Below are positions 8,211 through 44,577 of a stretch of DNA of 64,000 bases, one piece after another. The notes beneath the pieces are model-generated. The model did not search any database. It saw only the letters and a program-made list of their open reading frames with translations, and was not told where the DNA came from. Source of the stretch: Pirellulales bacterium (GTDB lineage Bacteria; Planctomycetota; Planctomycetia; Pirellulales; PALSA-1355); assembly GCA_963733035.1 (NCBI GenBank), contig CAVTBU010000005.1:864001-928000 (forward strand), read 5' to 3'. The translations under genes were made by a program, and so were the position numbers. Each line of letters opens with the position of its first letter. Positions within the stretch are counted from its first letter, which is position 1.

Positions 8211-8472
8211 GTTTCGACTTCTCCTGCGGTATTCGAACGACTAGTCCGTTGGCGAGCCCCTTTGGCTCACAATAAAACTAGCCCCCACCAAACCAATCGG
8301 CCCCCGAGGCATCCTGACGTGAAGCCTCCGGGGCCTTGTGCAGAATTATAGGGGGGTGATAGCGAGTGTCAACGAATGCCCGCTTCGGGTGGCAGGCTCG
8401 TCCATATTTCGCATCTGGCCAAACCAGTCGATTGGCCCGGCCACTCAAATTTCCCGCCACGGAGCGACGGCC

Positions 8473-8886
8473 ATGCCCTTTGAAACTTTTGAACACACTG
8501 CCGATCTGGGCTTGCGCATCTGGGCCGACAATCTGAACGCGCTTTTTGCCGACGCGGGGCGAGCGCTGTTCTCGTTGATCGTGCCAGACCGGGACAGCGT
8601 CCGGCCGACAGAGTCGTTCTCCTTCGAACTTGCGGACGAGGAGATCGAGCTTCTGCTTTTCGACTGGCTCAACGAGTTGCTCTACACCTACGAGGTCCGC
8701 CATTTGCTACTGGCGGACTTCGAGGTGCGTGTCCGCAAAGACGGCCTCACGGCGACCGCGCGAGGCGAAACGGTCGAACCGCAACGACACATTCTCGATC
8801 ATGAGGTCAAGGCAATTACGTACCACGGCCTAAAACTCGAGCGACAAGCGAACCTTTGGCGTGCCGAGGTGATCGTCGATATCTAG
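8473..8886 (+). CDS. archease
   Basis: 'FETFEHTADLG' N-terminus, 'EVKAITYHGL' and C-terminal 'VIVDI'; directly upstream of rtcB. Confidence 0.93.
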   Translation: MPFETFEHTADLGLRIWADNLNALFADAGRALFSLIVPDRDSVRPTESFSFELADEEIELLLFDWLNELLYTYEVRHLLLADFEVRVRKDGLTATARGETVEPQRHILDHEVKAITYHGLKLERQANLWRAEVIVDI

Positions 8887-8917
8887 CTTCACATAACACA
8901 CCGCTCAGGTGCCTCCA

Positions 8918-10380
8918 ATGGCTAAGCAGCGATTCACCGGACCGCTCGAACGCATCGACGATACTTCATGGCGTATTCCCAAAAGCTATCGCGAAGGAAT
9001 GCGCGTCGACGGCGTGATCTACGCCAACGACGCGCTGATTGAGTCCATCCGCCAGGACCAGGCCCTTGAACAAGTGGCGAACGTTGCCTTCTTGCCGGGT
9101 ATTCAAACGGCAAGCCTGGCGATGCCCGACATACACTGGGGCTATGGCTTCTGCATTGGCGGCGTCTGCGCCACGGATCCGAATGAAGGCGGCGTGATCT
9201 CGCCAGGAGGCGTCGGCTATGACATCAACTGCGGCGTGCGGCTTGTGCGCTCGAATCTCACGCGACGCGACGTCGAGCCGCACCTGACCAGGCTCGTAGA
9301 CGAACTCTACAAACAAGTACCGACCGGTACCGGTCGAGGCGGCAAGTATCGATTCACTCCAACCGAGCTCCGCCGTTTGATGGGCGAGGGTGTGAACTTT
9401 CTGGTCGACCGTGGCCTGGCCGTGGACAGCGATTTGGAGCATACAGAGGCCCGTGGCAAGCTCGCTGGTGCCCAGCCCGACTTCGTGAGCGACCGCGCAC
9501 TCCAGCGGGGTTATGACCAGTGCGGCTCGTTGGGGTCAGGAAACCACTTTCTTGAAGTGCAAGTGGTGGACTCGATTCATGATGAAGCGGCTGCCCAGGC
9601 CATGGGACTGGTTCGCGAGATGGTGGTCGTACTAATCCATTCCGGATCGCGCGGTCTGGGATACCAGGTTTGCGACGATGCCTTGAAGACGCTGCGGCAC
9701 GCGCCCGAGAAATACGGCATCAAGTTACCCGATCGACAGCTGGTATGCGCGCAATCGAGAGCCCCGAAGGACAGCAATACATCGGTGCCATGTGCGCCGC
9801 GGCAAACTTCGCCTGGTGCAACCGCCAACTCCTGATGTGGCAAACTCGCGAGTGTTTCGAATCGATCTTTCATCGTTCCTGGCAGGAAATGAGCATGGAC
9901 CTCGTCTACGATGTCGCACACAACATCGCCAAGTTCGAAGAGCACCAGGTCAACGGTCAACGCAAACGAGTGTGGGTACATCGGAAGGGAGCAACACGAG
10001 CCTTTCCCGCCAATCATCCCGAGACGCCGGAGGCCTATCGTGCCATCGGTCAGCCCGTAATCATTCCCGGCGATATGGGCCGTGCAAGCTGGGTGCTTGT
10101 CGGCCAGGATGGCAGCATGCGGCAAACCTTCGGCTCGGCCTGCCACGGCGCCGGTCGCGTCATGAGCCGTACCGCCGCGATCAAGTATGCGCAAGGTCGT
10201 CAGATCGACCGGGAATTGGCCGAACAGGGAGTCGTTGCCCGGGCCCGCAGCTGGAAGGGGCTGGCTGAAGAACAACCCGACGCGTACAAGAATGTCGACT
10301 TGGTTGTGGAGGTAGTCCATCAGGCGCAGTTGGCCAAGAAGGTGGCTCGCTTGCGCCCTATCGGAGTGATCAAAGGGTAG
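8918..10380 (+). CDS. rtcB: RNA ligase RtcB (archease-dependent type), split by a 1-nt frameshift near 9752
   Basis: Frame 1: 'MPDIHWGYGF', 'GVGYDINCG', 'GSGNHF', 'IHSGSRG'; frame 2: 'DVAHNIAK', 'VHRKGAT', 'PGDMG', 'SACHGAGR', 'EEQPDAYK'. Restoring one base gives LVCA-P-IESPEG. Confidence 0.93.
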
Positions 10381-10493: not shown

Positions 10494-12305
10494 TTAGCGG
10501 TTGACCGCCGTGCTGGTTCGCCCAGCTGTTTCGACGTAGAGCGGCAGATAGCGGTAGTAGACCTCCAGGCACAACGTGCACAGGGAAGTGCTATACACCC
10601 GGCCGCCACATCGCCCCCAAACGGGATCCGGATCCCAACTGCCCGCCCACGAACCGTCGAGTCGTTGGCTCGCAAGCAGCGTGTTTTGCAGCGATTCGTT
10701 CCACCGTCGCCACGGTTCTCCGCCGGCCTGATGGAGCGCAAGCGTCGCGTAGTACCAGTAGTAATGATTGGAATGCCCCGTCCCCGGAGTTTCCCGAAGC
10801 AGAAATTCGCACGCTTCACCCACCGTTTCCGGTCGATCGTCGACACCGAGGAATTGTCGGCAAGCCAACGCTTCGGCCGTCATCGAGCGCGTCGCGATCG
10901 GACGTGTTGGCTGATAGCATGCTAAGCCGCCACTTCGCCCGGACGCCACGCTGCGTAAGAACCGTTCCATGTTAGAGCGTGTTTCGCGGGGTATTGCCAG
11001 CCCTCCCAATTCAGCACTCTTGAGCGCCATTACCTGCCAACCGAGTTGGCTTGTGTCGCCAGGTTGACCAATCTGGTAGCGCCAACTTCCGCTGGCTCGG
11101 TCCTGCATACGAATCGTGTACTGGATGGCGGAACGCAGCGCGGGAAGGATCCGCTGGTCGCGCGTCATTGCGTACGCCTCGCTGAGCGCGCAGCAAGCCA
11201 TGGCGTGACAATACATCCGCTCGTAGAGATTGTCAGTGGCCCCCAAATTGCCCGTGGCGTCCTGCGATGCCAGCAGAAATTCGAGTCCGCGGCGGACATT
11301 GTCGCGATAAGCTCCCTGCAAATGCGTATGACCGGATGCCAAAAAGGTGAGCAGTGCCAGCCCGGTGAGACCCGTGTCGGCATGCGCGCCAGCAGACTGC
11401 CGCTCCTCGCCGTCGGCCGCGCGTCCAGTCCCGGCCTCCAGGCGTCGCGGGTCCCAGCGTCCGTTCGAATCCTGGTTCGCGGCCAACCAGCGCAGCGACG
11501 CCCGCACCGCAGCCTCGGTTTCCTTGGTCGCTCCGTTCGCTGTCGGCCCCAGGTGATTGCCGGTGCGACCTTGGTATATCTTTGGCACCGGAACCTGCTC
11601 GTTCGATTGCTTGCCGGCAAGTTCGCCTGATTGAGCGGAGCCGCTTTCGCCGCTTGGCCGCGGGGTCTCGGTAGCATCACCGCGGGGATTATTGTCCGGA
11701 GGTGGCACCAACGGTTCGGCCGGTCGCTCGGGCGGAGGCACGAGGTCGGGACTTTCTGCGTCCTCCGTAGGAAGCTCGGTCGGCTCGGGTCGCGGCCGCG
11801 GCCGTACCAAGGGCTCGTCGCGTGCGACCAACTCGGGTGCAGGCGCCTCGTCGGTAGTCGGCCGTTCGGGAAGGTTGGTGAGCGTCGACACGGCGGGCTC
11901 TTCCGGCAGTACGCGCTTCGGCTCCGCGACCTCTCCGAGCGGAGGCACTTCCGTTGTAGGCGAAAGGTCAACAACGTCGAGCGGAGTGACCGTCGCGGGA
12001 GCAATCGCGTTCCATCGCTCGGGTGAAAATGCCTCATCGAGCGGTTCGTCGGATGAGCCAGCGACGAGCGCCACGTGAACTCCACCGGTATTCGGAGAGT
12101 CGACGGGGGCTGTAACGATGTTGACCGTCGTCATGTAAATCGCAAGTAGCAGATGCGCTAGGAGCGACAGTACGACGCATTTACCAAGCGGCTGCTGCCC
12201 CCAGCGCGTGCGGATGAGCAGCAACAGGGCGACGGTGAGCAGAACGAGACCACCCCAGACAGCCCAGCGAGCAAGCTGCGCGTCCCACCAGAGGGCGATA
12301 ATCAT
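10494..12305 (-). CDS. Membrane-anchored prenyltransferase/squalene-oxidase-repeat protein with TonB/TolA-like N-terminal half
   Basis: Two N-terminal TM segments (second with SLLAH), ~150-aa Pro/Glu-rich linker, QW-like repeats ('WLAANQDSNGRW', 'QDRASGSW', 'SQRLDGSW'), C-terminal 'LEVYYRYLPLY'. Confidence 0.8.
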   Translation of the reverse strand: MIIALWWDAQLARWAVWGGLVLLTVALLLLIRTRWGQQPLGKCVVLSLLAHLLLAIYMTTVNIVTAPVDSPNTGGVHVALVAGSSDEPLDEAFSPERWNAIAPATVTPLDVVDLSPTTEVPPLGEVAEPKRVLPEEPAVSTLTNLPERPTTDEAPAPELVARDEPLVRPRPRPEPTELPTEDAESPDLVPPPERPAEPLVPPPDNNPRGDATETPRPSGESGSAQSGELAGKQSNEQVPVPKIYQGRTGNHLGPTANGATKETEAAVRASLRWLAANQDSNGRWDPRRLEAGTGRAADGEERQSAGAHADTGLTGLALLTFLASGHTHLQGAYRDNVRRGLEFLLASQDATGNLGATDNLYERMYCHAMACCALSEAYAMTRDQRILPALRSAIQYTIRMQDRASGSWRYQIGQPGDTSQLGWQVMALKSAELGGLAIPRETRSNMERFLRSVASGRSGGLACYQPTRPIATRSMTAEALACRQFLGVDDRPETVGEACEFLLRETPGTGHSNHYYWYYATLALHQAGGEPWRRWNESLQNTLLASQRLDGSWAGSWDPDPVWGRCGGRVYSTSLCTLCLEVYYRYLPLYVETAGRTSTAVNR

Positions 12306-12309
12306 GGGG

Positions 12310-12744
12310 TTAGCGACGTGCATGCGTGCTCTTGGCATCAGCGATTTCGACGGAGATCGCCAGATCGGCGATACCGGCCTGCTTGCAGACGTTGAGTACG
12401 TTCGCCACCCGTTCAAAAGGAGCCGTGCCGTCTCCTCTCACCAGCACTCCCAGGGCGTGGTACTGTGCATGTGCCGCGGACAGTTGTGTCTTCAATTCAT
12501 CGAGGTTGACGTTCTTGTGATCGAGCGTAATTTGTCCGTCACGGTAGACGTTTACGACCTTCTTCTCCGGCGCGGCGGACAGAGCATCGTTCGGACCGAC
12601 CTGCGGCAGCTTTAGTTCGATTTGTCGTTCGGCTTCGATGAATTTCGTGCCGATTACAAAGAAAATGATCAACAGGAACAGGACGTCGATCATCGACGTC
12701 AAGTTCAACGTGGGCATTTCTTCAACCTGACTTCGAATCGGCAT
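12310..12744 (-). CDS. exbD: ExbD/TolR family biopolymer transporter
   Basis: 'LNLTSMIDVLFLLIIFFVI' with the conserved membrane Asp; 'VLVRGDGTAPFERVANVL..CKQAGI'. Confidence 0.92.
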   Translation of the reverse strand: MPIRSQVEEMPTLNLTSMIDVLFLLIIFFVIGTKFIEAERQIELKLPQVGPNDALSAAPEKKVVNVYRDGQITLDHKNVNLDELKTQLSAAHAQYHALGVLVRGDGTAPFERVANVLNVCKQAGIADLAISVEIADAKSTHARR

Positions 12745-12783
12745 GGTGAAACTCGGTGCGAGGAAACGGAATTGAACGGGTGT

Positions 12784-13662
12784 CTAAGCGGCGGCCGGCG
12801 GACGCCCTTTCTGACGGCCTCGCCGATCTTCGTGCAGCGCTTCCGCGGAGATCAGCCCAGCCAACTCCTGGGCCAGCGAATCGATGGCCATCAGCAATCT
12901 CTCCACGCGGCCGAGGAAATAGAGGTGAATCAGCAGCGCTGGGATGGCTAGTAGCAGGCCGGCGGCGGTCGTCAGCAAGGCTTCGCTGATCCCGGCGGCC
13001 AGCAGTTCCGTGCGCCCCATGGCATCGGCGCTGGAAATGGCGTCGAACAGACGAATCATGCCCACAACCGTTCCCAACAAGCCCAGCAGGGGACTGATCG
13101 TGGCCACCGCGCTGAACAGTCGGGTGTAACGCCGCAGTCCCGGTGTAACGCGGTCTTCCGCATCAATGATGGTTTGTTCGATTTCGACCGAAGGACGGCC
13201 CCATTTTTTGACCACGGCCGCAAACACTTCGGATACGGGGCTGCTGCTCTCGTCACACAGGGCAAGGGCACCGTCGCGGTCGAGTTTGCCTTCGCTGACC
13301 TGATGCAGGAACCGCTTGACGTACGGGCGCGGAATGACGCGGCCGCCACGAAGGCTGATGGCGCGTTCGAACAGGAATACGAGCGTGAAGAACGAGCACA
13401 CCAGCAGCGGGATCATCATCACGCCGCCGCTTCGAATGATCTCGAAGAGGCTCTTATAGGATGTTGCTGAGTCGATTGCCGGGGAGTCCCCGAGCGACGC
13501 GGCCTCAGCCGAAGCCTGCGCCGGCGCATCTTGTGCGGAGGAGGTTGTCCACGTTGATCCGGCCAACGCCAAAAACAATATGCACCTGAAGATCAGGCTC
13601 CCAACCTTTGAATTACCGGCGTGGAAATGGTGCCGAGTTATTGCATCCATGCAAAGCCTCAC
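12784..13662 (-). CDS. exbB: MotA/TolQ/ExbB proton channel family protein
   Basis: 'ISPLLGLLGTVVGMI', 'LAAGISEALLTTAAGL..AIP'; N-terminal signal-like extension; start overlaps the TPR gene stop. Confidence 0.92.
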   Translation of the reverse strand: MRLCMDAITRHHFHAGNSKVGSLIFRCILFLALAGSTWTTSSAQDAPAQASAEAASLGDSPAIDSATSYKSLFEIIRSGGVMMIPLLVCSFFTLVFLFERAISLRGGRVIPRPYVKRFLHQVSEGKLDRDGALALCDESSSPVSEVFAAVVKKWGRPSVEIEQTIIDAEDRVTPGLRRYTRLFSAVATISPLLGLLGTVVGMIRLFDAISSADAMGRTELLAAGISEALLTTAAGLLLAIPALLIHLYFLGRVERLLMAIDSLAQELAGLISAEALHEDRRGRQKGRPPAAA

Positions 13663-16460
13663 TTTCGCGCGGTAGGTCCACTCGCCAGTCGCTGTCGCAT
13701 GGCGACAAGTCGTCGGTTGGCTTCCGCATTGAGTTCGCTATCGGGGTATAGTTCGAGCAGTTTCTGATAAAAGTCGGCCGCCCGTTTCCATTGTCCTTGG
13801 GCCTGTTCGGCTTTGCCCGATTGCAAAAGGGCCGCCGCGTGCCAATGCGGGAAATGGCCGTCAACCTGTAGGTATTCGGCTAGTGCCTGTGGATATTTCT
13901 CTTGATGGAAGTAACTTTCGCCAAGCATCCAACGGGCCATGGCCGCTGTTTCACTGCCGACGGCCTCCGGAGCTTCGAGTGTTTTCTTGTACCACTGCCG
14001 TGCGGAGTCAAAATCGGCCTGGGCCGCATAGGCACGCCCAAGCAGATAATTTACCTCGTACTGCTCAGGGAAATTTGGAAAACGCGCGGCAATCTTCTCG
14101 GCAACGGCCAACGCCTCGTTCCAACGACGAAGTTGTGCAAGTGCTTGCGCGCGGCGTAGCTCCGCGGTCGGCAGCCAGGTGTCGTTCAGTTCGGCAGTTT
14201 TTTTCGCAAGCGCGTCGAGCCGACTGGCGGCCTGCTCAAAGTCTCCTTGCCGAAAGCTGGCCTCACCGAGCAGGTACTCCGCCGGAAGGGCAAGGTCGCT
14301 GTCTGCGTGTTCTTTCAACAGCTGCGTGAGGGGACGCTGAGCCGCCGTCCAGTGTCCGCTGGCCAGCTCCGTGCGCCCCTCCAGATAGAGCGCCTGCGGT
14401 CGGATCTCCAGGGGCGCGTCGGGACGCGTAACTTCTCGGAGCAATGTCTTTGCCGTTTCGAAATCGCTTTTCGCGATGGCCGCTTCTGCCAGGCGTAAAG
14501 TTGCATCACTCACGTACGGGCTCGCGGCAAACTCCGTCCGAAGACGGTTGAACAATTCGTTCGCAGCCGCAGGGTTTGACGTGAGTCGAAGGCAGGCGCT
14601 GCGGTAAATTGCTTCATCGAGACCGACAAACTCAGGGTGCGTTTCGATCAGCGTGGCGTAGCCACGACGGGCCTCGTCAAGCCGTCCCAGTTGTTCGTGC
14701 AAACGAGCGGCGCAGAGCATCGCCTCCGCGGCGCGTGGTGTGTCCGAATAGCGGTTTACGACCAGTTCGTACATGGCCATCGCTTCGTCAGGGTGATCAA
14801 GATGCTCTAGCGCTCGGCCGCGCATCAGCGCCGCTTCGGCAGCCAACGGATCACCGGGAGCTGCGTCGAGTACCTGCTGAAATGCATCGGCGGCCTCGGT
14901 CCACCGCCCGGCATTGAAGTAGTTCCAGGCCAGGCTCGATTGGGCCCGACTCGCGATTTTTGCCGACCCTTCGACGACGCCCGCGAGCAAGTCTTGGGCA
15001 AGCGGTTGCTGGCCCGCCAATTGCGCGAGTTCTCCGACGCGAAGCTTGGCTTCGTCGATGACTTCCCTGGCAGGGCTACTTTGGGCAAGCGTGGCCAGGG
15101 TCTTTCGTGCGTCGTCGAAGTTGCCCAGCTTCGCCTGGCAGATGGCGAGAATGCCTTGTGCCCGGGCGCGTAACTGATCGGCATCCGGGATTGTTGCCGG
15201 ATCGGCGTCCAGAAGCGAGCGGAGTTGTACGACCGCGTCGGCCGGCTTGTCGAGAAGGGCCAGGGCCTGGCCCTTGGCGAGCCTGGCTTGGTCGACGAGC
15301 GGACTGTCAGGAAACCGCTTCAGCAGATCTTCGGCCAGCTCTAGGCTTTCGGCGGCGTCTTTGTTTTCGACGGCAATCCGTAACTTGCCGAGCAGCGAGT
15401 CGTCTGCCCAGGCCGAGTCGGGATACCGTTGCAGCACGCGATCAAATGCTTCGCGCACGGCCTCGAAGTTGCCTGAGTGCAGCAGGGCATCGGCCGAATG
15501 AAAGTTCACGGCTGGAGCCAGCACATGCTGCGGATCCAACTTGGTTTGCGAGAGCGTTTCACTGGCAACCCGCCATTGTCCCTGGGCCGCCTGAGTCAGT
15601 GCCAAATAGTAAGATGCCTCAAGCTGCGTGGCCGGACTGGCAGCCAACGCAGTAAAGACTTGTTGGGCCTCTTGCGTTCGCCCCAGCTTGAGCATGGCGT
15701 ATCCGCGACCGAGATGGGCTTTGTCGATCAGTTCGCTCTGGGGAAACTGCCGGATGAAGTCGTCGAATGTCGCCAGCGCCGCGGGGTGTTCGCCCAGCAC
15801 GTTTTCGATGGCTCCGACCTGCAATAGTGCCGGCTCGGTGAGTTCTCCGCCCTGTTCCACCACATGCCGATAAGCAGTGAGAGCTTCCTTCGGCTCGCCC
15901 CGCATGTGATAAACTTGTGCTAGACCAAATTGTGATTCTGCGGCCATCGGACCATGGGGATAGCGCTCGAGAGAGGCTTCAAACCACTTTTGCGCGACAT
16001 TGGCTTGCTCCGCTTGAAGCGCCAACCCACCAAGATAGGCAAGCCCATAGGCGTTGAGCGGGTCGTCTGGATAGCGGTCTGCAAATGCGGTCAATTGGCG
16101 TTGGGCCTCGGCATCATCGCCGACCATGTAGGCCGCCTCACCGACACGGAACAGACATTGCTGCGAATGAGGCCCGGACGCGTCGAGTTCGAGGACTCGA
16201 GCGAAGTGCGGGCGGGCGTCGTTCCAACGTCCAAGTTGCACCAGCGCCTCACCGTAAAAGAATTGCATTTCACTTCGCCCGGCGGCCTGTGGGTCCGACT
16301 CGAACAGCCGCGCGAAGGCCTCGCACGCCTGCTCCCAGCGCCCGTTGCGATAGTGTCCAGCGGCAACGGCAAACAGACCGCTGTCGTCCGCGCGTACGCT
16401 GCCGCCTGCCATCGCGAAGAGCGTTAGCAATAGCAAGCATGACTGCCGGACGTTCCGCAT
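13659..16460 (-). CDS. Large periplasmic tetratricopeptide-repeat protein (CpoB/BamD-like repeats)
   Basis: Signal peptide (MRNVRQSCLLLLTLFAMAGGSVRA) then many helical repeats ending in (Y/F)P(D/Q)S; alternative start 16490. Confidence 0.88.
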   Translation of the reverse strand: MRNVRQSCLLLLTLFAMAGGSVRADDSGLFAVAAGHYRNGRWEQACEAFARLFESDPQAAGRSEMQFFYGEALVQLGRWNDARPHFARVLELDASGPHSQQCLFRVGEAAYMVGDDAEAQRQLTAFADRYPDDPLNAYGLAYLGGLALQAEQANVAQKWFEASLERYPHGPMAAESQFGLAQVYHMRGEPKEALTAYRHVVEQGGELTEPALLQVGAIENVLGEHPAALATFDDFIRQFPQSELIDKAHLGRGYAMLKLGRTQEAQQVFTALAASPATQLEASYYLALTQAAQGQWRVASETLSQTKLDPQHVLAPAVNFHSADALLHSGNFEAVREAFDRVLQRYPDSAWADDSLLGKLRIAVENKDAAESLELAEDLLKRFPDSPLVDQARLAKGQALALLDKPADAVVQLRSLLDADPATIPDADQLRARAQGILAICQAKLGNFDDARKTLATLAQSSPAREVIDEAKLRVGELAQLAGQQPLAQDLLAGVVEGSAKIASRAQSSLAWNYFNAGRWTEAADAFQQVLDAAPGDPLAAEAALMRGRALEHLDHPDEAMAMYELVVNRYSDTPRAAEAMLCAARLHEQLGRLDEARRGYATLIETHPEFVGLDEAIYRSACLRLTSNPAAANELFNRLRTEFAASPYVSDATLRLAEAAIAKSDFETAKTLLREVTRPDAPLEIRPQALYLEGRTELASGHWTAAQRPLTQLLKEHADSDLALPAEYLLGEASFRQGDFEQAASRLDALAKKTAELNDTWLPTAELRRAQALAQLRRWNEALAVAEKIAARFPNFPEQYEVNYLLGRAYAAQADFDSARQWYKKTLEAPEAVGSETAAMARWMLGESYFHQEKYPQALAEYLQVDGHFPHWHAAALLQSGKAEQAQGQWKRAADFYQKLLELYPDSELNAEANRRLVAMRQRLASGPTARK

Positions 16461-16656
16461 CACAACGACGCCGCCGGGTTCGTGAAACAATGTCCCTAGT
16501 TTGGTCGCGAATCGTAGCGGCGGCGGTAGAAATGCCGCAAGGCCGCTTCAATGAAGCGACCTTGCCAGCTGACGTTCGAGTTTTTCACCCGTGGAGCGCC
16601 GCCGGGCTGCTAGCCTTGCTAGCCTCTTTGCGACGGACTCTCGGTGATAAGCGATG

Positions 16657-17226
16657 CTAGAAGTCGACCGAGCCAGTCTCTACGTTTCCAACCATGTGGA
16701 AGTGGTTGTGGTCAACGTAGATTACCTCGCGGGCATCTTCGTTGCGGGTCGTATACGGCAGCGGCCAACCGACCCGTGTTACCTCGGTGTAGTACACCGT
16801 GCACTTGTAGTGAGCATGATGCTGCTGGGCAGGCCCAATAAGCGGATAGAATCGTGGTGGATCGACATAGTCGGCAATCTTTTCCTTGATGATCCGCACG
16901 TTGTTCCGCTGTACTTCATGCATCACTGGCAAACCGCCCTCGACGGGATGAGCCCGCTCCAAGGCCCGCATGACCTCGTCGTCGCTCGGTTCGTCGAGTG
17001 CTTGCACGGGACCGCCTGCGGTGAGCGGACCGAGAATCGGCACTCGCTCATAGCGTTCCTTCATCCACCACTCGTCTTCCTTCTTGTCCTGAAAGAATGG
17101 GCTGACGGGAATTGGCACGCCGAAGACGCCCAGGTTTGGACCGGCCACGCCAGCACATCCCGTACTGCCGAGCAGGGCCAGGCCCAAGAGGATCAATCCC
17201 ATTTTGCCGGACGTCATGCGTGCCAT
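16657..17226 (-). CDS. Hypothetical lipoprotein
   Basis: Hydrophobic leader ending in lipobox-like 'LGSTGC'; GAGGG RBS; globular body ending 'VIYVDHNHFHMV'. Confidence 0.75.
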   Translation of the reverse strand: MARMTSGKMGLILLGLALLGSTGCAGVAGPNLGVFGVPIPVSPFFQDKKEDEWWMKERYERVPILGPLTAGGPVQALDEPSDDEVMRALERAHPVEGGLPVMHEVQRNNVRIIKEKIADYVDPPRFYPLIGPAQQHHAHYKCTVYYTEVTRVGWPLPYTTRNEDAREVIYVDHNHFHMVGNVETGSVDF

Positions 17227-17538: not shown

Positions 17539-18303
17539 TTAATGATGGCTGCGGTCGTAGAAGTCGAGGAACCACCAGCCATCATCCCATTCCAACGCTA
17601 CCTTACGCCAACCGAGCGGCACCTGGGGATATGGGTAGAACGGACCAATGTACGGCCACGCGGTGGGCGAGTATTGCTGCGGATAGGTCAGGGCTGAGTA
17701 GTTCGGGTAAGCAGCATAGCTTGGCCAGGCGTAGTTCGGCATGTACGGCTGATCGTAGGCCGGGGGATTCACCGCTGGACCACCAGCCGGAGCATACATC
17801 GTCGGCGGGCAGGCATGTCGCGCGGCTTTGCGAGCCAGGTGGTTGTAGCCGGCAGGCGCCACCTGCCCTCCTTCGGTGGCCGAAGCAACCGGAAGTTCTT
17901 GCCCAGTCGCCGCTGCGGCAGGATCAAAATCGGCCGTTGTCGCCGAAACTCGACGCGTCATGTGGCTGATCGCCGGACGACCGGGTCGCGCGGCGCCCGG
18001 CGCATGCTGCTTCGCGGCCCTGGCGACCGTCATGTTGTTAACGATTTGGTCAATCCCTTCGATGTCGCTGACGACTCCCAATGCTGCTTGCAGCTGCTGA
18101 TTGTTGGAGACTCGCCCAGAAAGCCAGACGGTTCCGTCTTTGTACTTTACACCGACACTGTAGTCCTTCATTCTCCCGCTGTCCCGCAAGATCGTGGCAA
18201 TCTGCTGGGCAGCTGCTCGTTCTTCGCGGTCGTCGGCCAGCGCTCGGGCTGGTGCGGTGGCGGCAATCGAAGCGATCACCAAGCTAAACAAGATCCGTCG
18301 CAT
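17539..18303 (-). CDS. BON-domain secreted protein with Tyr/Pro-rich C-terminus
   Basis: Signal peptide; 'VGVKYKDGTVWLSGRV...ALGVVSDIEGIDQIVNNMTV' BON pattern; tail 'YPYPQVPLGWRKVALEWDDGWWFLDF'; AGGAGG RBS. Confidence 0.85.
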   Translation of the reverse strand: MRRILFSLVIASIAATAPARALADDREERAAAQQIATILRDSGRMKDYSVGVKYKDGTVWLSGRVSNNQQLQAALGVVSDIEGIDQIVNNMTVARAAKQHAPGAARPGRPAISHMTRRVSATTADFDPAAAATGQELPVASATEGGQVAPAGYNHLARKAARHACPPTMYAPAGGPAVNPPAYDQPYMPNYAWPSYAAYPNYSALTYPQQYSPTAWPYIGPFYPYPQVPLGWRKVALEWDDGWWFLDFYDRSHH

Positions 18304-18560
18304 TTCCCCCCCTCCTGAATGAATGCCATGGCATCCGTTGTTGAGGCGCCCGCCTTTGTGGGCCTCGTGTTTATTTCCGCGTTGAGCCAATACGCCGGGA
18401 GTCTCCCCGGTGCATCGGCCATTCACCCGACTATAGGTGTCGGTTGCGGATTGTGCCGAAGGGGAGCTTTTTTCCGATCCTAGCGGTTTTTGCGGGAAGT
18501 TGGCCGGCAGCTAGCTGGCGAAAACCCACAGGCATCAGGAAGCGCAAGGCGGGAGAGCCG

Positions 18561-37643: not shown

Positions 37644-40600
37644 TCATGTTGCGAGTTCTTGCTCGCCGACTTCCTTGAGGAGGTCGTCGAGCGAGGAGTC
37701 GAGTTCGGAGTCGAACTCAAGTGCGGACACAAAAAGGTAATCTAGCAGGTGGCGACTTTGCGGTGGCTCGGCAGTCCCTTGGTGGGTGAGCGGACTGGCA
37801 ATCGGACTCGTAACCTGCGCGCTAAAGATTGAGTGGACCGTTTCGTGCTGCCTTTGAATAGTCAGAGCGGCCGCCACGGCTGAATCGCTACCATCGCTGG
37901 TGGCCACCGAAGGTGCCGCATCGGGAGCCGACGGTGGAACCCAGTCAATCACCCTGGTCAAAAAGCCGCCGTTGGTGCGGGCGACAATCTGGTCTGCCGC
38001 GTTCACAAAATGGTCCTTGTTGAAGTCGGCGATATTGGTGATCGGCAACAAGAACCCGGTATTGGTTCGAGCGTAAATCTCGTCACCGGCATTAGTCGTG
38101 ACCAGCGTTGACGGCGAGCCTAGGAACGTGTCGCCGATACGGTTGCCATAGAAGAACACGTCGCTGGAGGCCAATCCTGTATTGGCGTCGCTGCCGCCGA
38201 GCGCATCGTTACCTTTCACAATCACTTGCAACCACTCATTCTGAATGGCATTGTCGGCCCAAATGATTTCGACGCGGTCTGAACCACCGTCACCCGCACC
38301 CGGCCGTACCGAGAAGCCGGTCGGAGCCGGAGCTGTCGCCCAGCTGTTGGGCACATTGTTGGTGCCAATCTTAAATGCGAAATCAGCAGTTGTCAGCGTG
38401 CCATGCGTACCGGCAATGTCCACCATGAGACCATTGATTCCTCGGCTGTAGCTGGTGAAGGCGCTTATTGGCGCCGTGCCGACACCATTGAAGGCCGCCT
38501 TGTCGGGGGCGATTGCTCCGTCGTCCGACGCACTGATCCCCGCTGTGTTGCCGTCGTAGTACGAGTTGTTGTAGAAAACGTTGCGGGCGGCGATCGACGA
38601 TCCGGAGCCAATCGAGATCGTGGCTGTTGCAAGATTACTCGTGGCCAATCCATCGCTGGCCGAGATGTCCACGGTCACGGTTCCTGATCCGGGACCACCG
38701 GCGGTGTTGTTGTAGGTGATTGAACGAAGTACGGCCTGGTAGTTGGCCAGTGAATCGGTGCCGCTGAGTGTGAGGGTATTGCCAACAAAACTCGGCGTGA
38801 TGTTTCCAATCGCGGAAGCCGCCAGCACGTTGTTGGGATCGGTACCGGAGACAATCACGGCCGTCATGCTGGTGAGCGTCGTGTCATCTGGGTCGGTAAC
38901 GGTAGCACCTGCGACGTCGGTGATGTGAATTGCACCCGCGTTCGTCCAGATCGAATTGAAGTTGTCGCCTGCGGCGCCGCTCAGATCGACGTGCGGAGCC
39001 TGATTGTTGATCTTGATCGAGCGGGAAGCGATTGCGCTGATATTGCCATCGTCGGCGGTAAACAACAGCACCCGGTTCGTGGCCGACACGTTGGAATTGC
39101 TATACGTGATGGACTGGAGAGCCGCTTGATAGTTTGCAGCGCTATCAATGCCGCTGAGGGTCAAGATGCCAGTTAACATATCGAAACTGCCGGTGATGTT
39201 TGGCGTGTCAATGAAGGTCAGTTGATCCTCGCCGTTGACATATCCGGCGATCTGCACGGTTGCGCCCACAAGAAAACTACTGTCGGTGTCCGTGATGGCG
39301 ACGCCAGGATCGGCGACCACTGGACTTGTCGGAGAGTAGACGAGGGGCGACGCGGTCGTGGTGACCGTTGGCGGGGCGTTGCTGGCGAAGTTCGTTGAAC
39401 CGATGTGGTTGAGAGGTTTATGGGCGAATGATTCGGGGGCGGTGTTGCTGGCCCCGCCGAGTTTCAGCGTTGGCAATGTGCCGCCAAGATTGTCGCTGGC
39501 CACCCAATCAGACGCTTGCCAGCCGAGCGTGTCCCCAGTGCGACCAATGTAGGCGGCAGTGAATGGAGCGACGACCGGCTGCGAATCGGGAGTGAACACA
39601 TTAGTGATTCCATTGGCGTCGGAGAAGTTGAGATAGCCGTAGCCAATATCTCCAGGAGTGCCGGCTCCACTGGTAAGCGCGCCCACGGCGTCGAAGACGG
39701 TAAATCCGCTGAACTCAGTGCCGTGTAGTGTGCCCGTGCCGCCAGCATCCAGAACGTCGCCGGGATAGACTGGATTCGAAATCGTGTTGGTTTGGATCAA
39801 CATGTAGCTGGACGACGGCTTGATCAGATTAATGTCTGTGCTTCGCACGATCGCGCTATGTCCAACGATACTGCTGCCACCAAATCCGTAGTTGTTTCCG
39901 TAGCCGGCTCCCGTTCCGAGTCCTGTATTGTCGAGCACCGCCGCGTTGGGGTCGATCAGCCCAGCAGCAACGTATGGATTATCCTTTTGCAAGATCACCA
40001 ACATGCCGTTCGACCCAGTGGTATCGCCGGAAAGGTCAAATGTCTCGAACACGGTGCCGACCGGGTAGACCGTTGTACCAAAGGAGTCTGTGATACTGAC
40101 TGGCGTACTATTGAGTGAAATCAAGTAGGTTCCGTTCGGAATCGTGTAGTTCGGCGCGAGCGATCGCAACTCGATGTAGTCGTTCGGATTGTCCGGACTT
40201 CCAGGCGGATTGAAGAACAACTCGTTGATCAAGAGTGGCGATGGCGCCACCACGTTGAGATTGATCGGGGTGACCGTGCTTTGCGGACCGGGGCCGCCGG
40301 TGTTACCCAAATCGTTGGTCGTGATCTGAATCGCCGCGGAGCCGGTGTAGCCGTTCGTCGGGGTAAAGGTTAAGCCATCGAGTGCGGCGTTCAGGTCGAC
40401 AAGGCTGCCCGTGTACGTCAGTAAGGCGGTGCCATCGCCGCTGCCAGACAGACCGGCGAGGCTACTCAAGGTGAGCGTGCCGTGGGTGGCCGTCAACGTG
40501 ATCTGCTCACTGGCCCCGTTGGCATCGACATCCGAGACGGAAACCGCATTCAACTCGGCGTTGGAAAACACGTAGGGTACGTTCTCGACCGCGCGGATCG

Positions 40601-43286: not shown

Positions 43287-43467
43287 TGATGACGACTCCT
43301 ATGGACCTGGTCGAGTGTGTTTTTGGTTCAAGGCCGTTACGGCCGTCTGCGCGGGCCTGTTGAGCCCGCCGTTTATGACTTTTGTTCCGAATGACTCTGG
43401 TTGCGTAGCGAAACTCTCCAGCTGACAAAGACTGAGTTTGAAACGGACCGTATCCGAGACCACGGCT

Positions 43468-44577
43468 TCAAAACCCCTCCGCGGGAACCGGTTCGTCACC
43501 GTCCCGCGAGGCCAGTGCCATCAAGAGGGGAAGCTCCATCGTTTCCTCCAGGAAGTGCACCGAGCCGTCGCACATTAGCGCGTGAGCACCACCGGGGTGA
43601 TCGGAGAAAATCTCGTCGTAGTGCCAAGCAGTGGGTTCGTTCGGCGAAGACGGCGGTTCGGGCAAGTTGATTTGGTACTTGATCGCGCAGGTGTTCGATC
43701 CGTTGGGACTGGCATAGCCACCCGCCCATGCGCCCCGAGCCACCAGGTCGCGTTGGTTCCAACCACGACCCGTCAGCTCGGCAACCACCATGGTGTATGA
43801 AAGTCCATCGGTGATTCTTCTGGGGCTGACCGTTTTCGCGACGTGAATGCCTGGGTCATTTTTCTGCGCGGTGATATTCAAAAGGACGCCATGGCCCTTG
43901 CCGTACGTTTGAAACGCGTTGCCGCTGGCGGTCAGGCGGTAACGATTCAAGATATTGTCGTTCGGGCCGTCGATTCCGCAGTAGTCGGTGCACGCCATCC
44001 CTTCGCCTAGGTCCCAGTGGTTGTTTTTGATGAAATCGCCCAAGTGTCCATCATCAAGACGGTATGGCGCCAAACGCCCCGTGCTTGGACAAAGGAAAAT
44101 CGGAACAATCTGGTTCGTCGGACCGGTTCCATCCGGTTGATTGTTAGGCGGCGCCGTCGGCTGCTGAAGAAAGACCAACTGCGAAGCGAGATTGGACTCC
44201 TCCATGTAGTCCAGAATTAAGGCACACCAGTTCCACGCATCGCACCGATAGCACTTCTGCTCGACGCCGGGTGGAAACGTTCCTTTGACCAGCACATAGC
44301 CGTTCAGCGCGAGGCCAATTTCCTTCAGGTTATTGGCGCATGATGTGCGGCGCGAGCTTTCGCGGGCAGCCTGAACGGCCGGCAATAGCAGCGCCACCAA
44401 CAGGCCAATAATCGCGATCACGACCAAGAGTTCCACCAGGGTAAAACCGTCGCGGCGAGAAATGAGAACGTCCTCTCGCCGAGGGCCAACAAACCTGGCG
44501 TTTGTTCGCGACAAAAGCCCGCGGTATCTACGCACCGCGATCGACTCGGCCGAGCGAACCATGGTTAAAGTGAGCAT
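43468..44577 (-). CDS. DUF1559 prepilin-type N-terminal methylation domain protein
   Basis: 'GFTLVELLVVIAIIGLLVALLLPAVQAARE..RR..C.NNLK.IGLAL', 'ITDGLSYT...AE', 'SDHPGGAHALMCDGSVHF'; exact start uncertain. Confidence 0.95.
   Translation of the reverse strand: MLTLTMVRSAESIAVRRYRGLLSRTNARFVGPRREDVLISRRDGFTLVELLVVIAIIGLLVALLLPAVQAARESSRRTSCANNLKEIGLALNGYVLVKGTFPPGVEQKCYRCDAWNWCALILDYMEESNLASQLVFLQQPTAPPNNQPDGTGPTNQIVPIFLCPSTGRLAPYRLDDGHLGDFIKNNHWDLGEGMACTDYCGIDGPNDNILNRYRLTASGNAFQTYGKGHGVLLNITAQKNDPGIHVAKTVSPRRITDGLSYTMVVAELTGRGWNQRDLVARGAWAGGYASPNGSNTCAIKYQINLPEPPSSPNEPTAWHYDEIFSDHPGGAHALMCDGSVHFLEETMELPLLMALASRDGDEPVPAEGF

Follow-up and report, generated by a model that had tools for sequence, protein, structure and literature searches.

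A putative TonB/TolA-like transducer with an (alpha/alpha)6 barrel head encoded beside exbB and exbD in a Pirellulales bacterium

Gene organization of the locus and its recurrence

Four closely packed genes, all on the minus strand, lie at the place singled out by an earlier note within a 64,000-nucleotide stretch of a Pirellulales genome (hereafter, the window), and they encode a TPR protein, ExbB, ExbD and a protein that we term G4 (Table 1). The junctions, read from the sequence, agree with the earlier account: the stop codon of the TPR gene (TGA, 13661-13659) overlaps the GTG start of exbB as GTGA—with an alternative ATG start for exbB 8 nt beyond the GTG—and the exbD stop codon (TAA, 12312-12310) and the ATG of G4 at 12305 are 4 nt apart. 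The gap between exbB and exbD spans 39 nt, and the version of G4 predicted by the gene caller starts 6 codons earlier. Upstream, the genes for a lipoprotein and a BON-domain protein are set off from the operon by gaps of 166-196 nt and 312 nt. A scan for promoters and terminators gave counts not above those of shuffled sequence. As the earlier note had reported, no TonB-dependent receptor, TolB or Pal was found among the scanned ORFs of the window (at least 200 aa). Included here, and left out of that description, are the first membrane helix of G4, its D-box-like strand and, farther upstream, the genes of the conserved lipoprotein and of the BON protein.

Table 1. Genes and G4 features at the locus (window coordinates)
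Feature	Coordinates	Strand	Remarks
TPR protein gene	13659..16490	minus	start TTG 16490 = 943 aa; ATG 16460 = 933 aa
exbB	12784..13662	minus	PF01618
exbD	12310..12744	minus	PF02472, membrane Asp
G4	10494..12305	minus	603 aa, TonB/TolA-like with barrel head (predicted)
Lipoprotein, 189 aa	16657..17226	minus	no Pfam family; candidate machine partner
BON-domain protein	17539..18426	minus	PF04972; start codon uncertain
G4 membrane helix 1	12213..12266	minus	residues about 14-31; helix 9-32 in model; hydrophobic, conserved
G4 basic cytoplasmic loop RTRWGQQPLGK	12180..12212	minus	residues 32-42
G4 membrane helix 2, Ser47-x3-His51	12114..12179	minus	residues 43-64; helix 39-64 in model
G4 D-box-like strand VHVALV	12063..12080	minus	residues 76-81, His51+25
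G4 Pro/Glu/Ala-rich stalk, variable length	11559..12062	minus	residues 82-249; gap-rich alignment columns
G4 (alpha/alpha)6 barrel head	10536..11558	minus	residues about 250-590; pLDDT mostly >90

Both motor subunits are recognized above threshold by their Pfam families (ExbB, PF01618, E 7.5e-27, 94.0 bits; ExbD, PF02472, E 2.2e-27, 96.1 bits), and Asp20, the membrane Asp of ExbD remarked on previously, is present in 'SMIDVLF'. This Asp motif recurs in 68 of 71 ExbD matches; among the other three, one does have the Asp and two begin past the helix. Against the NCBIfam equivalogs all scores fall under the cut-offs, the best-scoring models being TolQ for ExbB (80.7 versus 221) and TolR for ExbD (58.4 versus 127.3), with the ExbB and ExbD models themselves at 53.9 versus 206.2 and 38.0 versus 216, respectively. 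The first membrane helix (TM1) of barrel-linked ExbB proteins carries an invariant Ser (61/61) and, four residues later, Leu or Val—at a position, counted from the Ser, where E. coli ExbB has a Trp that contacts TonB.

The TPR protein, predicted to be secreted on account of a signal-peptide-like N-terminus read from its sequence, matches many TPR families. Its score against TIGR02795, the YbgF/CpoB TPR model, reaches 283 bits (cut-off, 90.1) when summed over 8 repeated stretches, and that against the CpoB equivalog NF008068 stays at 81.9 (cut-off, 383). CpoB/YbgF itself is a protein of about 260 aa, with a YbgF-type TPR domain and an N-terminal coiled coil.

The arrangement recurs widely, bearing out the proposed synteny. 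Among the 68 loci that could be judged, exbD lies directly upstream of the G4 homologue and on the same strand in every one (67 by tblastn, the 68th by Pfam). An adjacent exbB was detected by tblastn at 56 of 61 loci, the remaining five (Gimesia type) having an exbD-G4 pair with no adjoining exbB. A long TPR gene precedes exbB at 32 of 45 loci, and 13 have none detectable by tblastn. Stieleria, Botrimarina and, going by MAG labels, Gimesia are among the cultured genera in which loci occur. The genome under study contains five ExbB genes, three of them in clusters composed of TPR, ExbB, ExbD and SxxxH-barrel genes; the long TPR gene is present in both paralogous clusters, one of which (L010) has two exbD-type genes. 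Moreover, two orphan barrel genes of this genome also encode S-x3-H helices. No S-x3-H protein was seen in the four upstream ORFs read at the fourth ExbB cluster (L011).

Membrane anchor, D-box-like strand and stalk of G4

The structural model of G4 comprises two helices, a low-confidence stalk (pLDDT mostly <55 for residues 64-220) and a confident barrel. A single membrane helix had been described before; this SxxxH helix, 'CVVLSLLAHLLLAIY', stands as placed, with Ser47 at 12165-12167 and His51 at 12153-12155, but an earlier helix (residues about 14-31) had been missed. The two helices are joined by a nearly invariant loop with the consensus RTRWGQxPLxK, in which T33, W35, G36, P39, L40 and K42 are invariant (34 sequences). 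The Pro/Glu-rich linker that follows, put at ~150 aa in the earlier note, was likewise recovered, at a length of about 170 aa (residues 82-249); the corresponding stalk spans 150-300 aa across homologues.

The SxxxH signature proved to be conserved. Ser47 and His51 belong to only 27 invariant columns across 111 aligned sequences, a 33%-identical paralogue included, and the Ser and His form the only two invariant columns in an N-terminal alignment of 54 loci with identities down to 16%. Among the matches listed, all 110 homologues with an N-terminus keep S-x3-H; among the loci with a visible N-terminus, the Ser was found in 68 of 69 and the His in 69 of 69. The Leu and Ser that complete the SHLS motif (His+7 and His+11) are not conserved: position 58 varies, and N, T, H, S or Q occupies position 62. 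Passages in Celia et al. (PMC12215075) describe these two positions as less conserved in TonB too, and the cryo-EM structures treated there have Ser16/His20 of TonB and Ser18/His22 of TolA in contact with TM1 of ExbB and TolQ.

A candidate for a second TonB-like element follows helix 2. Using the definition of the TonB D-box in PMC10907165, we scored the pattern Phi-x-Phi-x-Phi-Phi between His+13 and His+50, with the next 37 residues as the control. The pattern was present in 67 of the 111 sequences, in 54 of them exactly at His+25, versus 1/111 for the control stretch; 44 of the 111 do not have the strict pattern. The D-box of E. coli, ISVTMV, is given in passages of PMC10907165 and PMC12215075 as beginning at residue 45, i.e., His20+25.

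The charge distribution around the two helices places the barrel in the periplasm: the loop between them averages 2.56 K+R and 0.07 D+E, and the 30 residues past helix 2 average 1.02 K+R and 5.00 D+E (111 sequences). The topology predicted from sequence is consistent with a periplasmic barrel, as the earlier note had supposed.

Searches of PDB sequences with a profile of the N-terminal 100 residues matched no TonB or TolA chain. The sole match, claudin-19 (E 0.015), was taken as chance, and a match to TolA that the full profile gave over positions 44-309 (9kpz_H, E 2.3e-4) was set aside—it falls on the low-complexity stalk. The link between G4 and TonB/TolA lies at the level of motifs only. 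Searched against 1.84 billion representatives, a profile of the anchor matched 1113 cluster representatives at 50% identity; among the matches listed (150), these are members of the G4 family or fragments of them, and 54 of the 61 listed matches with at least 450 aa end in barrel motifs; no different type of head was found on the anchor among those listed.

We consider it likely that G4 serves an ExbB-ExbD proton motor as a TonB/TolA-like energy transducer, fitted with a new head. Through Ser47 and His51, helix 2 would dock on the outer face of the ExbB pentamer, and the ExbD dimer would catch the VHVALV strand at His+25 with its periplasmic domains, as happens with the D-box of TonB. The Pro/Glu-rich stalk would then bridge the periplasm and transmit force to the (alpha/alpha)6 barrel as the working head. 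At the outer membrane or close to it, this head would bind some partner or ligand, and it may process one as well; the putatively secreted TPR protein could serve, like CpoB, as an accessory scaffold.

The barrel head: fold, cyclase likeness and possible enzymatic function

The closest solved folds to the G4 barrel are the single-domain squalene-hopene-cyclase-like structures 8PAJ and 8PAK and the class II terpene cyclases 1GSZ and 6SBB. In VIA-align, the barrel superimposes on 8paj_A with a Z of 26.2 (rmsd 3.3, 293 residues aligned, 18% identity) and on 1gsz_A with a Z of 25.1, while Foldseek matched it to 8pak_B with an E of 7.3e-6. Other (alpha/alpha)6 enzymes follow close behind, at Z 21-23, so that the resemblance to cyclases is not set apart from resemblance to the fold in general. 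We found no papers on 8PAJ or 8PAK in the open-access literature or bioRxiv.

At the sequence level, QW-like repeats such as those of squalene-hopene cyclases (SHC) are detectable in G4 by profile, with a match to the SHC QW-repeat region at residues 511-590 (E 1.6e-8). All family scores remain below threshold, both in Pfam (PF13243, 19.0 versus 26.1; PF09492, 20.5 versus 22; DUF6288, 16.7 versus 26.3 bits) and in NCBIfam (TIGR01787, 23.2 versus 322.7; TIGR01507, 16.1 versus 431.1). The squalene-cyclase likeness remarked on earlier is, accordingly, clear by fold but weak by sequence. No TonB_C (PF03544), TolA or VWA family was found among the Pfam matches of G4 (TonB_C, E up to 0.01).

An automatic pipeline might label G4 a class II terpene cyclase of the squalene-hopene type, guided by the weak PF13243 and TIGR01787 matches, the profile match to the QW-repeat region and the squalene-hopene cyclase names borne by the top structural matches. 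That G4 truly is such an enzyme seems to us extremely improbable. The Pfam and NCBIfam scores lie far under the curated cut-offs, and G4 has a single barrel of ~340 aa compared with roughly 630 aa in the two-barrel enzyme. DxDD is the catalytic motif of class II terpene cyclases, and only 5 of the 111 sequences have any D-x-D-D within their last 380 residues; the G4 barrel, without a conserved DxDD, is moreover predicted to sit in the periplasm at the tip of a long stalk, tethered behind a TonB-like anchor. Passages of a recent preprint also report that the order Pirellulales has no SHC and that SHC domain models give many false positives (10.1101/2025.07.29.667474). Annotators should be warned that 'squalene-hopene cyclase' labels on barrel-headed proteins of the G4 type would be wrong.

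A broader enzymatic reading deserves consideration, in which G4 is a membrane-anchored periplasmic enzyme acting on a glycan or an isoprenoid lipid and no force passes through it; ExbB and ExbD would then serve another purpose, such as substrate uptake, or merely regulate or localize the enzyme. The fold list consists mostly of enzymes at Z 18-26—terpene cyclases, cellobiose 2-epimerases and GH76 mannanases, along with unsaturated glucuronyl hydrolases and polysaccharide lyases. The invariant residues of the barrel include many polar and aromatic ones (H328, Y365, H367, E376, Y410, D417, Y464 and W517 among them, in 111 sequences), a set that would suit an enzyme and a binding head equally. 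Barrel-only relatives, moreover, are common in the phylum, multicopy and found within very long ORFs. However, an anchor that only held an enzyme in place would need no invariant Ser-x3-His face, no D-box-like strand at a fixed offset and no variable stalk of 150-300 aa. The presence of exbD directly upstream at all 68 judged loci and the threefold occurrence of the whole arrangement within a single genome also count against it. An enzymatic head would, besides, be compatible with force transduction. We regard this purely enzymatic reading as quite unlikely, and retain the transducer with a barrel head as the favored one.

Envelope partners, known machines and possible roles

The operon probably represents a variant of the machines that deliver energy from inner membrane to outer envelope. 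With the E. coli Ton system it shares a PF01618/PF02472 motor, the membrane Asp of ExbD and a partner gene adjacent to exbBD; with TonB in particular, G4 shares an S-x3-H helix and a Pro-rich stalk, together with a putative D-box-like strand of the Phi-z-Phi-z-Phi-Phi pattern at His+25. G4 differs in having no TonB_C domain and in its pair of membrane helices, TonB and TolA each having a single one. The G4 head measures about 340 aa, compared with about 80-90 in TonB, and addition of a TonB-box strand is therefore not expected. The features in common with Tol-Pal are best scores against the TolQ and TolR models, CpoB-type TPR units encoded in the operon, a lipoprotein neighbour and the Ser/His helix. 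In contrast to Tol-Pal, G4 has no TolA C-domain, no TolB_N was matched in the genome, the lipoprotein has no OmpA-like domain, the TPR protein extends to 933-943 aa and all equivalog scores are sub-cut-off.

The lipoprotein and the BON protein (PF04972, E 1.4e-9) are candidate envelope partners. At 31 of 60 loci the lipoprotein gene is found either a short way upstream of the TPR gene or directly upstream of exbB; its product is 56-78% identical over 28 loci (64% to the protein at L058:5932-6528), with G23, C24 (the lipobox Cys), H136, H137, C142, D172, H175 and H177 invariant. From this invariant His/Cys/Asp cluster a bound metal would be predicted. A Pfam search assigned it no family and no OmpA-like domain, a fold search gave a best structural match of just Z 5.0, the Atlas returned only unnamed Planctomycetota clusters, and its 2714 homologues are unnamed or 'hypothetical'. 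A relative of the BON protein is encoded upstream on the same strand at 21 of the 60 loci having an ExbB match, and BON proteins were also recognized by Pfam at L058, L072, L075, L081 and L088.

These neighbours bear on the possibility that the machine is an analogue of Tol-Pal, in which the barrel arm works with the CpoB-like TPR protein, the BON protein and the lipoprotein to keep the outer membrane attached or to reshape the envelope, perhaps when the cell divides by budding. We put this forward tentatively, as a role that is possible but short of probable. The YbgF/CpoB-type units of the TPR protein point in this direction, as do the TolQ and TolR models that score best (below cut-off) for ExbB and ExbD, the two conserved neighbours themselves and the lack of a TolB_N match in the genome. 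In the gene tree, the link with the lipoprotein is scattered over distant branches of the main clade, which also speaks for it. Yet this lipoprotein shows neither an OmpA-like peptidoglycan-binding domain nor a recognizable fold, it is missing from about a third of the loci with sufficient upstream sequence and from both paralogous clusters, and the intergenic gaps noted above separate it and the BON gene from the operon. The genome does contain two OmpA-like genes, neither of them near the window.

The machine could alternatively be an analogue of Ton, energizing uptake through outer-membrane channels—either through a lone gene resembling those of TonB-dependent transporters or through a planctomycete-specific route for macromolecules. 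The genome has a single gene with Plug and beta-barrel domains (C3:78546-80274), and neither TonB_C nor TolB_N found a match in it (92% complete); TonB_C was also absent from the 6 sampled genomes of the nearest family. Furthermore, planctomycetes import whole polysaccharides by a route described as uncharacterized in passages of PMC12673574. We nevertheless hold this uptake reading to be unlikely: the one receptor gene lies on another contig and is set against at least 5 SxxxH-barrel genes, and a large barrel would be unable to use beta-strand addition, the way in which TonB binds the TonB box. Additionally, of 151 genomes sampled from the phylum, the barrel profile matched 136 and TonB_C matched 110; therefore at least 95 genomes—most of those sampled—carry both, and the barrel-headed arm does not simply replace TonB.

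Our guess is that the role of the machine is Tol-like maintenance or remodelling of the envelope rather than import of the TonB-box type. A more far-reaching picture, which we offer as speculation and think doubtful, would make barrel arms a major phylum-wide use of the proton motive force in the Planctomycetota envelope. In the orthologous group of the window, the invariant His-rich lipoprotein would be what the barrel grips, helped by the TPR and BON proteins. Together they would form a machine resembling Tol-Pal without homology to it, used to maintain the outer membrane or in budding division; paralogous arms of the same genome would have other targets, as multiple TonBs do.

The earlier note had proposed, as a candidate for an undescribed design, a TonB/TolA-shaped ExbBD transducer with an alpha/alpha barrel as its head. 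Motif, synteny and predicted location all favor such a transducer, but its novelty has to be narrowed. Passages of Williams-Jones et al. (2025, PMC12204202) describe SHLS-anchored transducers in the PVC group with a vWA head, and not that of TonB, encoded beside TPR, tolQ-like and tolR-like genes. G4 and the vWA-headed proteins of those passages have in common an SHLS-type helix, a disordered linker, synteny with TPR, tolQ-like and tolR-like genes, downstream of which their own genes lie, and an occurrence in Planctomycetes. They differ in that the G4 head is an (alpha/alpha)6 barrel with no vWA fold, the G4 locus has one exbD instead of the pair of unlike tolR genes described there, and G4 is anchored by a hairpin of two helices joined through a conserved basic loop. 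The words 'prenyl' and 'squalene' are absent from the main text of PMC12204202, and we found no published description of a barrel-headed transducer in the open-access literature or bioRxiv. New here is the barrel head alone, the general design having already appeared in print in 2025 with heads of the vWA type.

The significance of such a head lies in what it would say about the anchor. To our knowledge, before 2025 only two related arms, TonB and TolA, were known for action of ExbBD/TolQR beyond the inner membrane. A second unrelated head, if true, would mean that the Ser-x3-His helix and the D-box-like strand make up an anchor that is portable, a module through which different tools can be set on the same motor, and the barrel head sits on a large family—the 1113 cluster representatives and 136 of 151 sampled genomes given above. 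The lineage of the window has no recognizable TonB or TolB, and its envelope biology includes division by budding, the uptake of whole polymers and an enlarged periplasm; TonB, ExbB and Tol-Pal go unmentioned in a 2025 review of the phylum (PMC12673574). For this biology, the G4 family supplies concrete genes and point mutants for tractable planctomycetes.

The four-gene unit of the window

On the minus strand, four co-directional genes encode a TPR protein, ExbB, ExbD and G4, a 603-aa protein that an earlier note had described as TonB-shaped and barrel-ended. Open reading frames, Pfam matches and junctions read from the sequence confirmed this arrangement: the 4-nt spacing between the exbD stop and the G4 start was borne out, and the overlap of the TPR stop with the exbB start holds for a GTG start codon, with an ATG 8 nt past that stop as the alternative. 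The exbB-exbD intergenic distance is 39 nt. The TPR protein consists of an array of TPR units, with the YbgF/CpoB TPR model matched eight times. Against the NCBIfam equivalog models (TolQ, ExbB, TolR, ExbD), ExbB and ExbD fell far below the cut-offs, with TolQ and TolR giving the best scores. Downstream, the unit ends at a convergent RtcB/archease pair, in which RtcB is split into two overlapping ORFs, owing to either a frameshift or a misassembly.

Features of the window and of related loci, with coordinates
Feature	Location	Strand	Remarks
Archease	8338-8886		just upstream of RtcB
RtcB	8909-10380	+	ORFs 8909-9835 (profile positions 1-228) and 9670-10380 (213-426)
G4	10494-12305	-	start ATG 12305, four bases past exbD stop
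ExbD	12310-12744	-	PF02472 above Pfam threshold; membrane Asp present
ExbB	12784-13662	-	PF01618 above Pfam threshold
TPR protein	13659-16490	-	start more likely ATG 16460; N-terminus signal-peptide-like
Lipoprotein	16657-17226	-	invariant lipobox Cys
Cadherin-like and pilin-like genes	37644-44577	-	1880 aa ORF with bacterial cadherin-like domain adjoins DUF1559/N-terminal-methylation (pilin-like) gene
Barrel gene of contig C6	L010:5965-7619		ends at 433 aa; C-terminal part continues in another frame
Fourth motor cluster (L011)	C7:521000-535000		TPR protein (353 aa), ExbB, ExbD, ExbD
Plug + TonB-dependent-receptor beta-barrel gene	C3:78546-80274		only one in the genome
Fused barrel arm	L069:5385-9671		1428 aa; Phycisphaerae-labelled record

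A TonB/TolA-like anchor and a barrel head in G4

An alignment of 34 homologues (44-76% identity) divides G4 into a hydrophobic first helix, a nearly invariant basic loop (RTRWGQxPLxK), a second helix bearing the CVVLSLLAHLLL pointed out in the earlier note, a length-variable Pro/Glu/Ala-rich stretch and a highly conserved C-terminal domain. In an AlphaFold2 model built with 111 sequences (mean pLDDT 77.3, pTM 0.67), the two helices span residues 9-32 and 39-64, residues 64 to about 220 are of low confidence, and at the C-terminus helix pairs are arranged as a barrel (pLDDT mostly >90). Across these 111 sequences, the inter-helix loop is positive (mean Lys+Arg 2.56, Asp+Glu 0.07) and the 30 residues past helix 2 are acidic (1.02 and 5.00, respectively)—a charge distribution that, by the positive-inside rule, would place the loop in the cytoplasm and the stalk and barrel in the periplasm. 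The S-x3-H helix of a three-helix paralogue comes out in the same orientation.

Ser47 and His51 of helix 2, which form the S-x3-H motif, are invariant in the 111-sequence alignment, a 33%-identical paralogue included, and no other column stays invariant when the N-termini of 54 loci, down to 16% identity, are aligned. The motif is kept in 110 of 110 homologues having an N-terminus among the 120 matches listed (the other 10 being without one), and 69 of the 80 fetched loci show an N-terminus, with His in all 69 and Ser in 68; locus L044 carries Ala-x3-His. In the contacts that PMC12215075 details from E. coli cryo-EM, TonB Ser16/His20 and TolA Ser18/His22 touch TM1 of ExbB/TolQ. The likeness has a limit on the motor side: the 61 barrel-linked ExbBs have an invariant Ser in TM1 but Leu or Val at +4, where E. 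coli ExbB, by counting from its Ser, would have the contacting Trp.

The D-box, as outlined in the relevant part of Loll et al. (PMC10907165), is a proline-flanked Phi-z-Phi-z-Phi-Phi-z strand directly past the anchor, clamped by the ExbD dimer; that of E. coli TonB (ISVTMV) begins at residue 45, i.e., His20+25 (PMC10907165, PMC12215075). G4 residues 76-81 (VHVALV) are D-box-like and share the His+25 offset with these descriptions of TonB. Such a pattern occurs between His+13 and His+50 in 67/111 family members, at exactly His+25 in 54 of the 111, and in 1/111 over the next 37 residues, which served as a control; two orphan paralogues have similar strands (LEVTVA and LQVEVT). This strand may be a second TonB feature of G4. 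The resemblance of the anchor to TonB/TolA lies at the level of motifs; the N-terminal profile of G4 retrieved neither TonB nor TolA from PDB sequences, the family does not conserve the Leu and Ser that complete the SHLS motif, and G4 has two membrane helices where TonB has one.

Structure comparison of the model matched the barrel (about residues 250-590) to single (alpha/alpha)6 barrels, the fold of the modelled head being certain on this basis. The matches were 8paj_A (Z 26.2, rmsd 3.3 Å over 293 residues, 18% identity), 1gsz_A (Z 25.1), and sugar epimerases and GH76 mannanases (Z 21-23), with 8pak_B as the best Foldseek match (E 7.3e-6); cyclase likeness therefore stands just slightly above the general fold. 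The reading of G4 as a cyclase was rejected: all cyclase sequence models (Pfam, NCBIfam) remained below threshold, the G4 profile matched squalene-hopene cyclase at the QW-repeat end alone (E 1.6e-8), and D-x-D-D occurs in 5/111 family sequences.

Gene neighbourhoods and paralogous clusters

Scanning one genome per species gave 611 confirmed relatives, of which the best 80 loci, all Planctomycetota-labelled, were kept; synteny was counted where enough upstream sequence was available. On the same strand, exbD lies directly upstream of the G4 homologue in 67 of 68 loci by tblastn and in the 68th (L069) by Pfam, exbB is upstream in 56/61, and a long TPR gene in 32/45. Both the conserved SxxxH and the exbBD linkage that the earlier note had named as checks were found. 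The five loci without exbB form a distinct clade including Gimesia-labelled loci, with exbD-G4 pairs only. In a separate clade that takes in the Gimesia-labelled loci (L077, L078, L080, L082-L086), exbD directly precedes the barrel-arm gene without an exbB close by, which means that the gene for the motor channel subunit must lie somewhere else. The L069 protein, which follows TPR-ExbB-ExbD, carries the S-x3-H helix and the barrel together with a CarboxypepD_reg domain and PD40 repeats of the TolB beta-propeller type; larger, fused forms of the barrel arm thus exist.

Nine loci without a long TPR gene have directly before exbB a ~200 aa ORF homologous to the window lipoprotein (64% identity), and five of these carry, further upstream, genes for a BON protein and for a TPR-thioredoxin protein. 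In the subclade that has no long TPR gene (L058, L072, L075, L081 and L088), the latter (TPR plus Redoxin/AhpC-TSA) lies upstream of the BON gene, a hint that a redox component may belong to this gene group. With 56-78% identity across 28 loci, the lipoprotein is better conserved than G4, and H136, H137, C142, D172, H175 and H177 are invariant. This cluster, in which a Cys and an Asp accompany four His (QQHHAHYKC ... DHNHxH), looks like a candidate metal site, judging from sequence. Of 60 loci with an ExbB match, 31 have the lipoprotein upstream of the TPR gene or exbB and 21 have the BON protein upstream; in several of the others the available sequence stops too soon for a judgement. Gaps of 166-196 nt and 312 nt set the lipoprotein and BON genes off from the operon. 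On the barrel-domain tree, the lipoprotein link is scattered over distant branches of the window's main clade and absent from some subclades and from outgroups. All 2714 database relatives of the lipoprotein are unnamed or 'hypothetical'; no Pfam family was found for it, and a fold search gave no clear match (best Z 5.0).

Five ExbB matches were found in the window's genome (6.6 Mb, 92% complete), and three of them lie in clusters with a barrel protein. Besides the window's TPR/ExbB/ExbD/G4 unit, these comprise a TPR protein (1098 aa), ExbB, ExbD and an 891 aa barrel protein with the helix SLLAH on contig C7, and ExbB, two ExbDs, a 350 aa membrane protein, a SVTAH barrel protein and an 876 aa TPR protein on contig C6. 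The C6 membrane protein, encoded between exbD2 and the barrel gene, has no family, and the barrel gene itself is either broken or affected by a sequencing error. Two more barrel genes, with S-x3-H helices STVVH and STVFH, lie away from any motor; orphan arm genes are a frequent arrangement of extra TonB genes. The fourth motor cluster lacks a barrel gene, and the four upstream ORFs examined showed no S-x3-H protein. Its surroundings include a vWA/YfbK_C-like gene some 5.5 kb upstream and, immediately downstream, an integrase. Genome-wide searches at this completeness found neither TonB_C nor TolB_N, and the two OmpA-like genes lie away from the window.

Known transducers, distribution and possible roles

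Examining neighbours of motor genes in TolA- and TonB-less species, Williams-Jones et al. (2025, PMC12204202) report vWA-headed proteins that also have an SHLS helix and a disordered linker. The G4 family is organised on the same principle, differing in its head and in having a hairpin as anchor. 'Prenyl' and 'squalene' are absent from the main text of that paper, full-text searching of open-access papers and bioRxiv turned up no account of an arm headed by a barrel, and a 2025 review of the phylum (PMC12673574) leaves TonB, ExbB and Tol-Pal unmentioned. The core of the earlier interpretation, a TonB/TolA-like transducer, is supported, and G4 is probably a motor-coupled transducer. The further suggestion of an undescribed kind of machine does not survive the vWA-headed precedent; what sets the G4 family apart is its barrel head and hairpin anchor. 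As to the machine's role, Tol-like envelope upkeep is possible though doubtful, and Ton-like uptake is improbable.

The full-length G4 profile has matches, as a rule several per genome, in 136 of 151 sampled phylum genomes (E up to 1e-20); since most matches span the barrel only, this figure counts barrel proteins, not arms. When clusters are drawn at 50% identity, the anchor profile alone matches 1113 of their representatives at E up to 0.001, a number that falls to 610 with the limit at 1e-10. TonB_C was found neither in the window's genome nor in any of the six genomes sampled from the nearest family, all of them at least 99% complete. Of the 151 genomes above, 110 do have it, so that arms and TonB occur side by side across much of the phylum, and barrel arms are not a simple TonB replacement.
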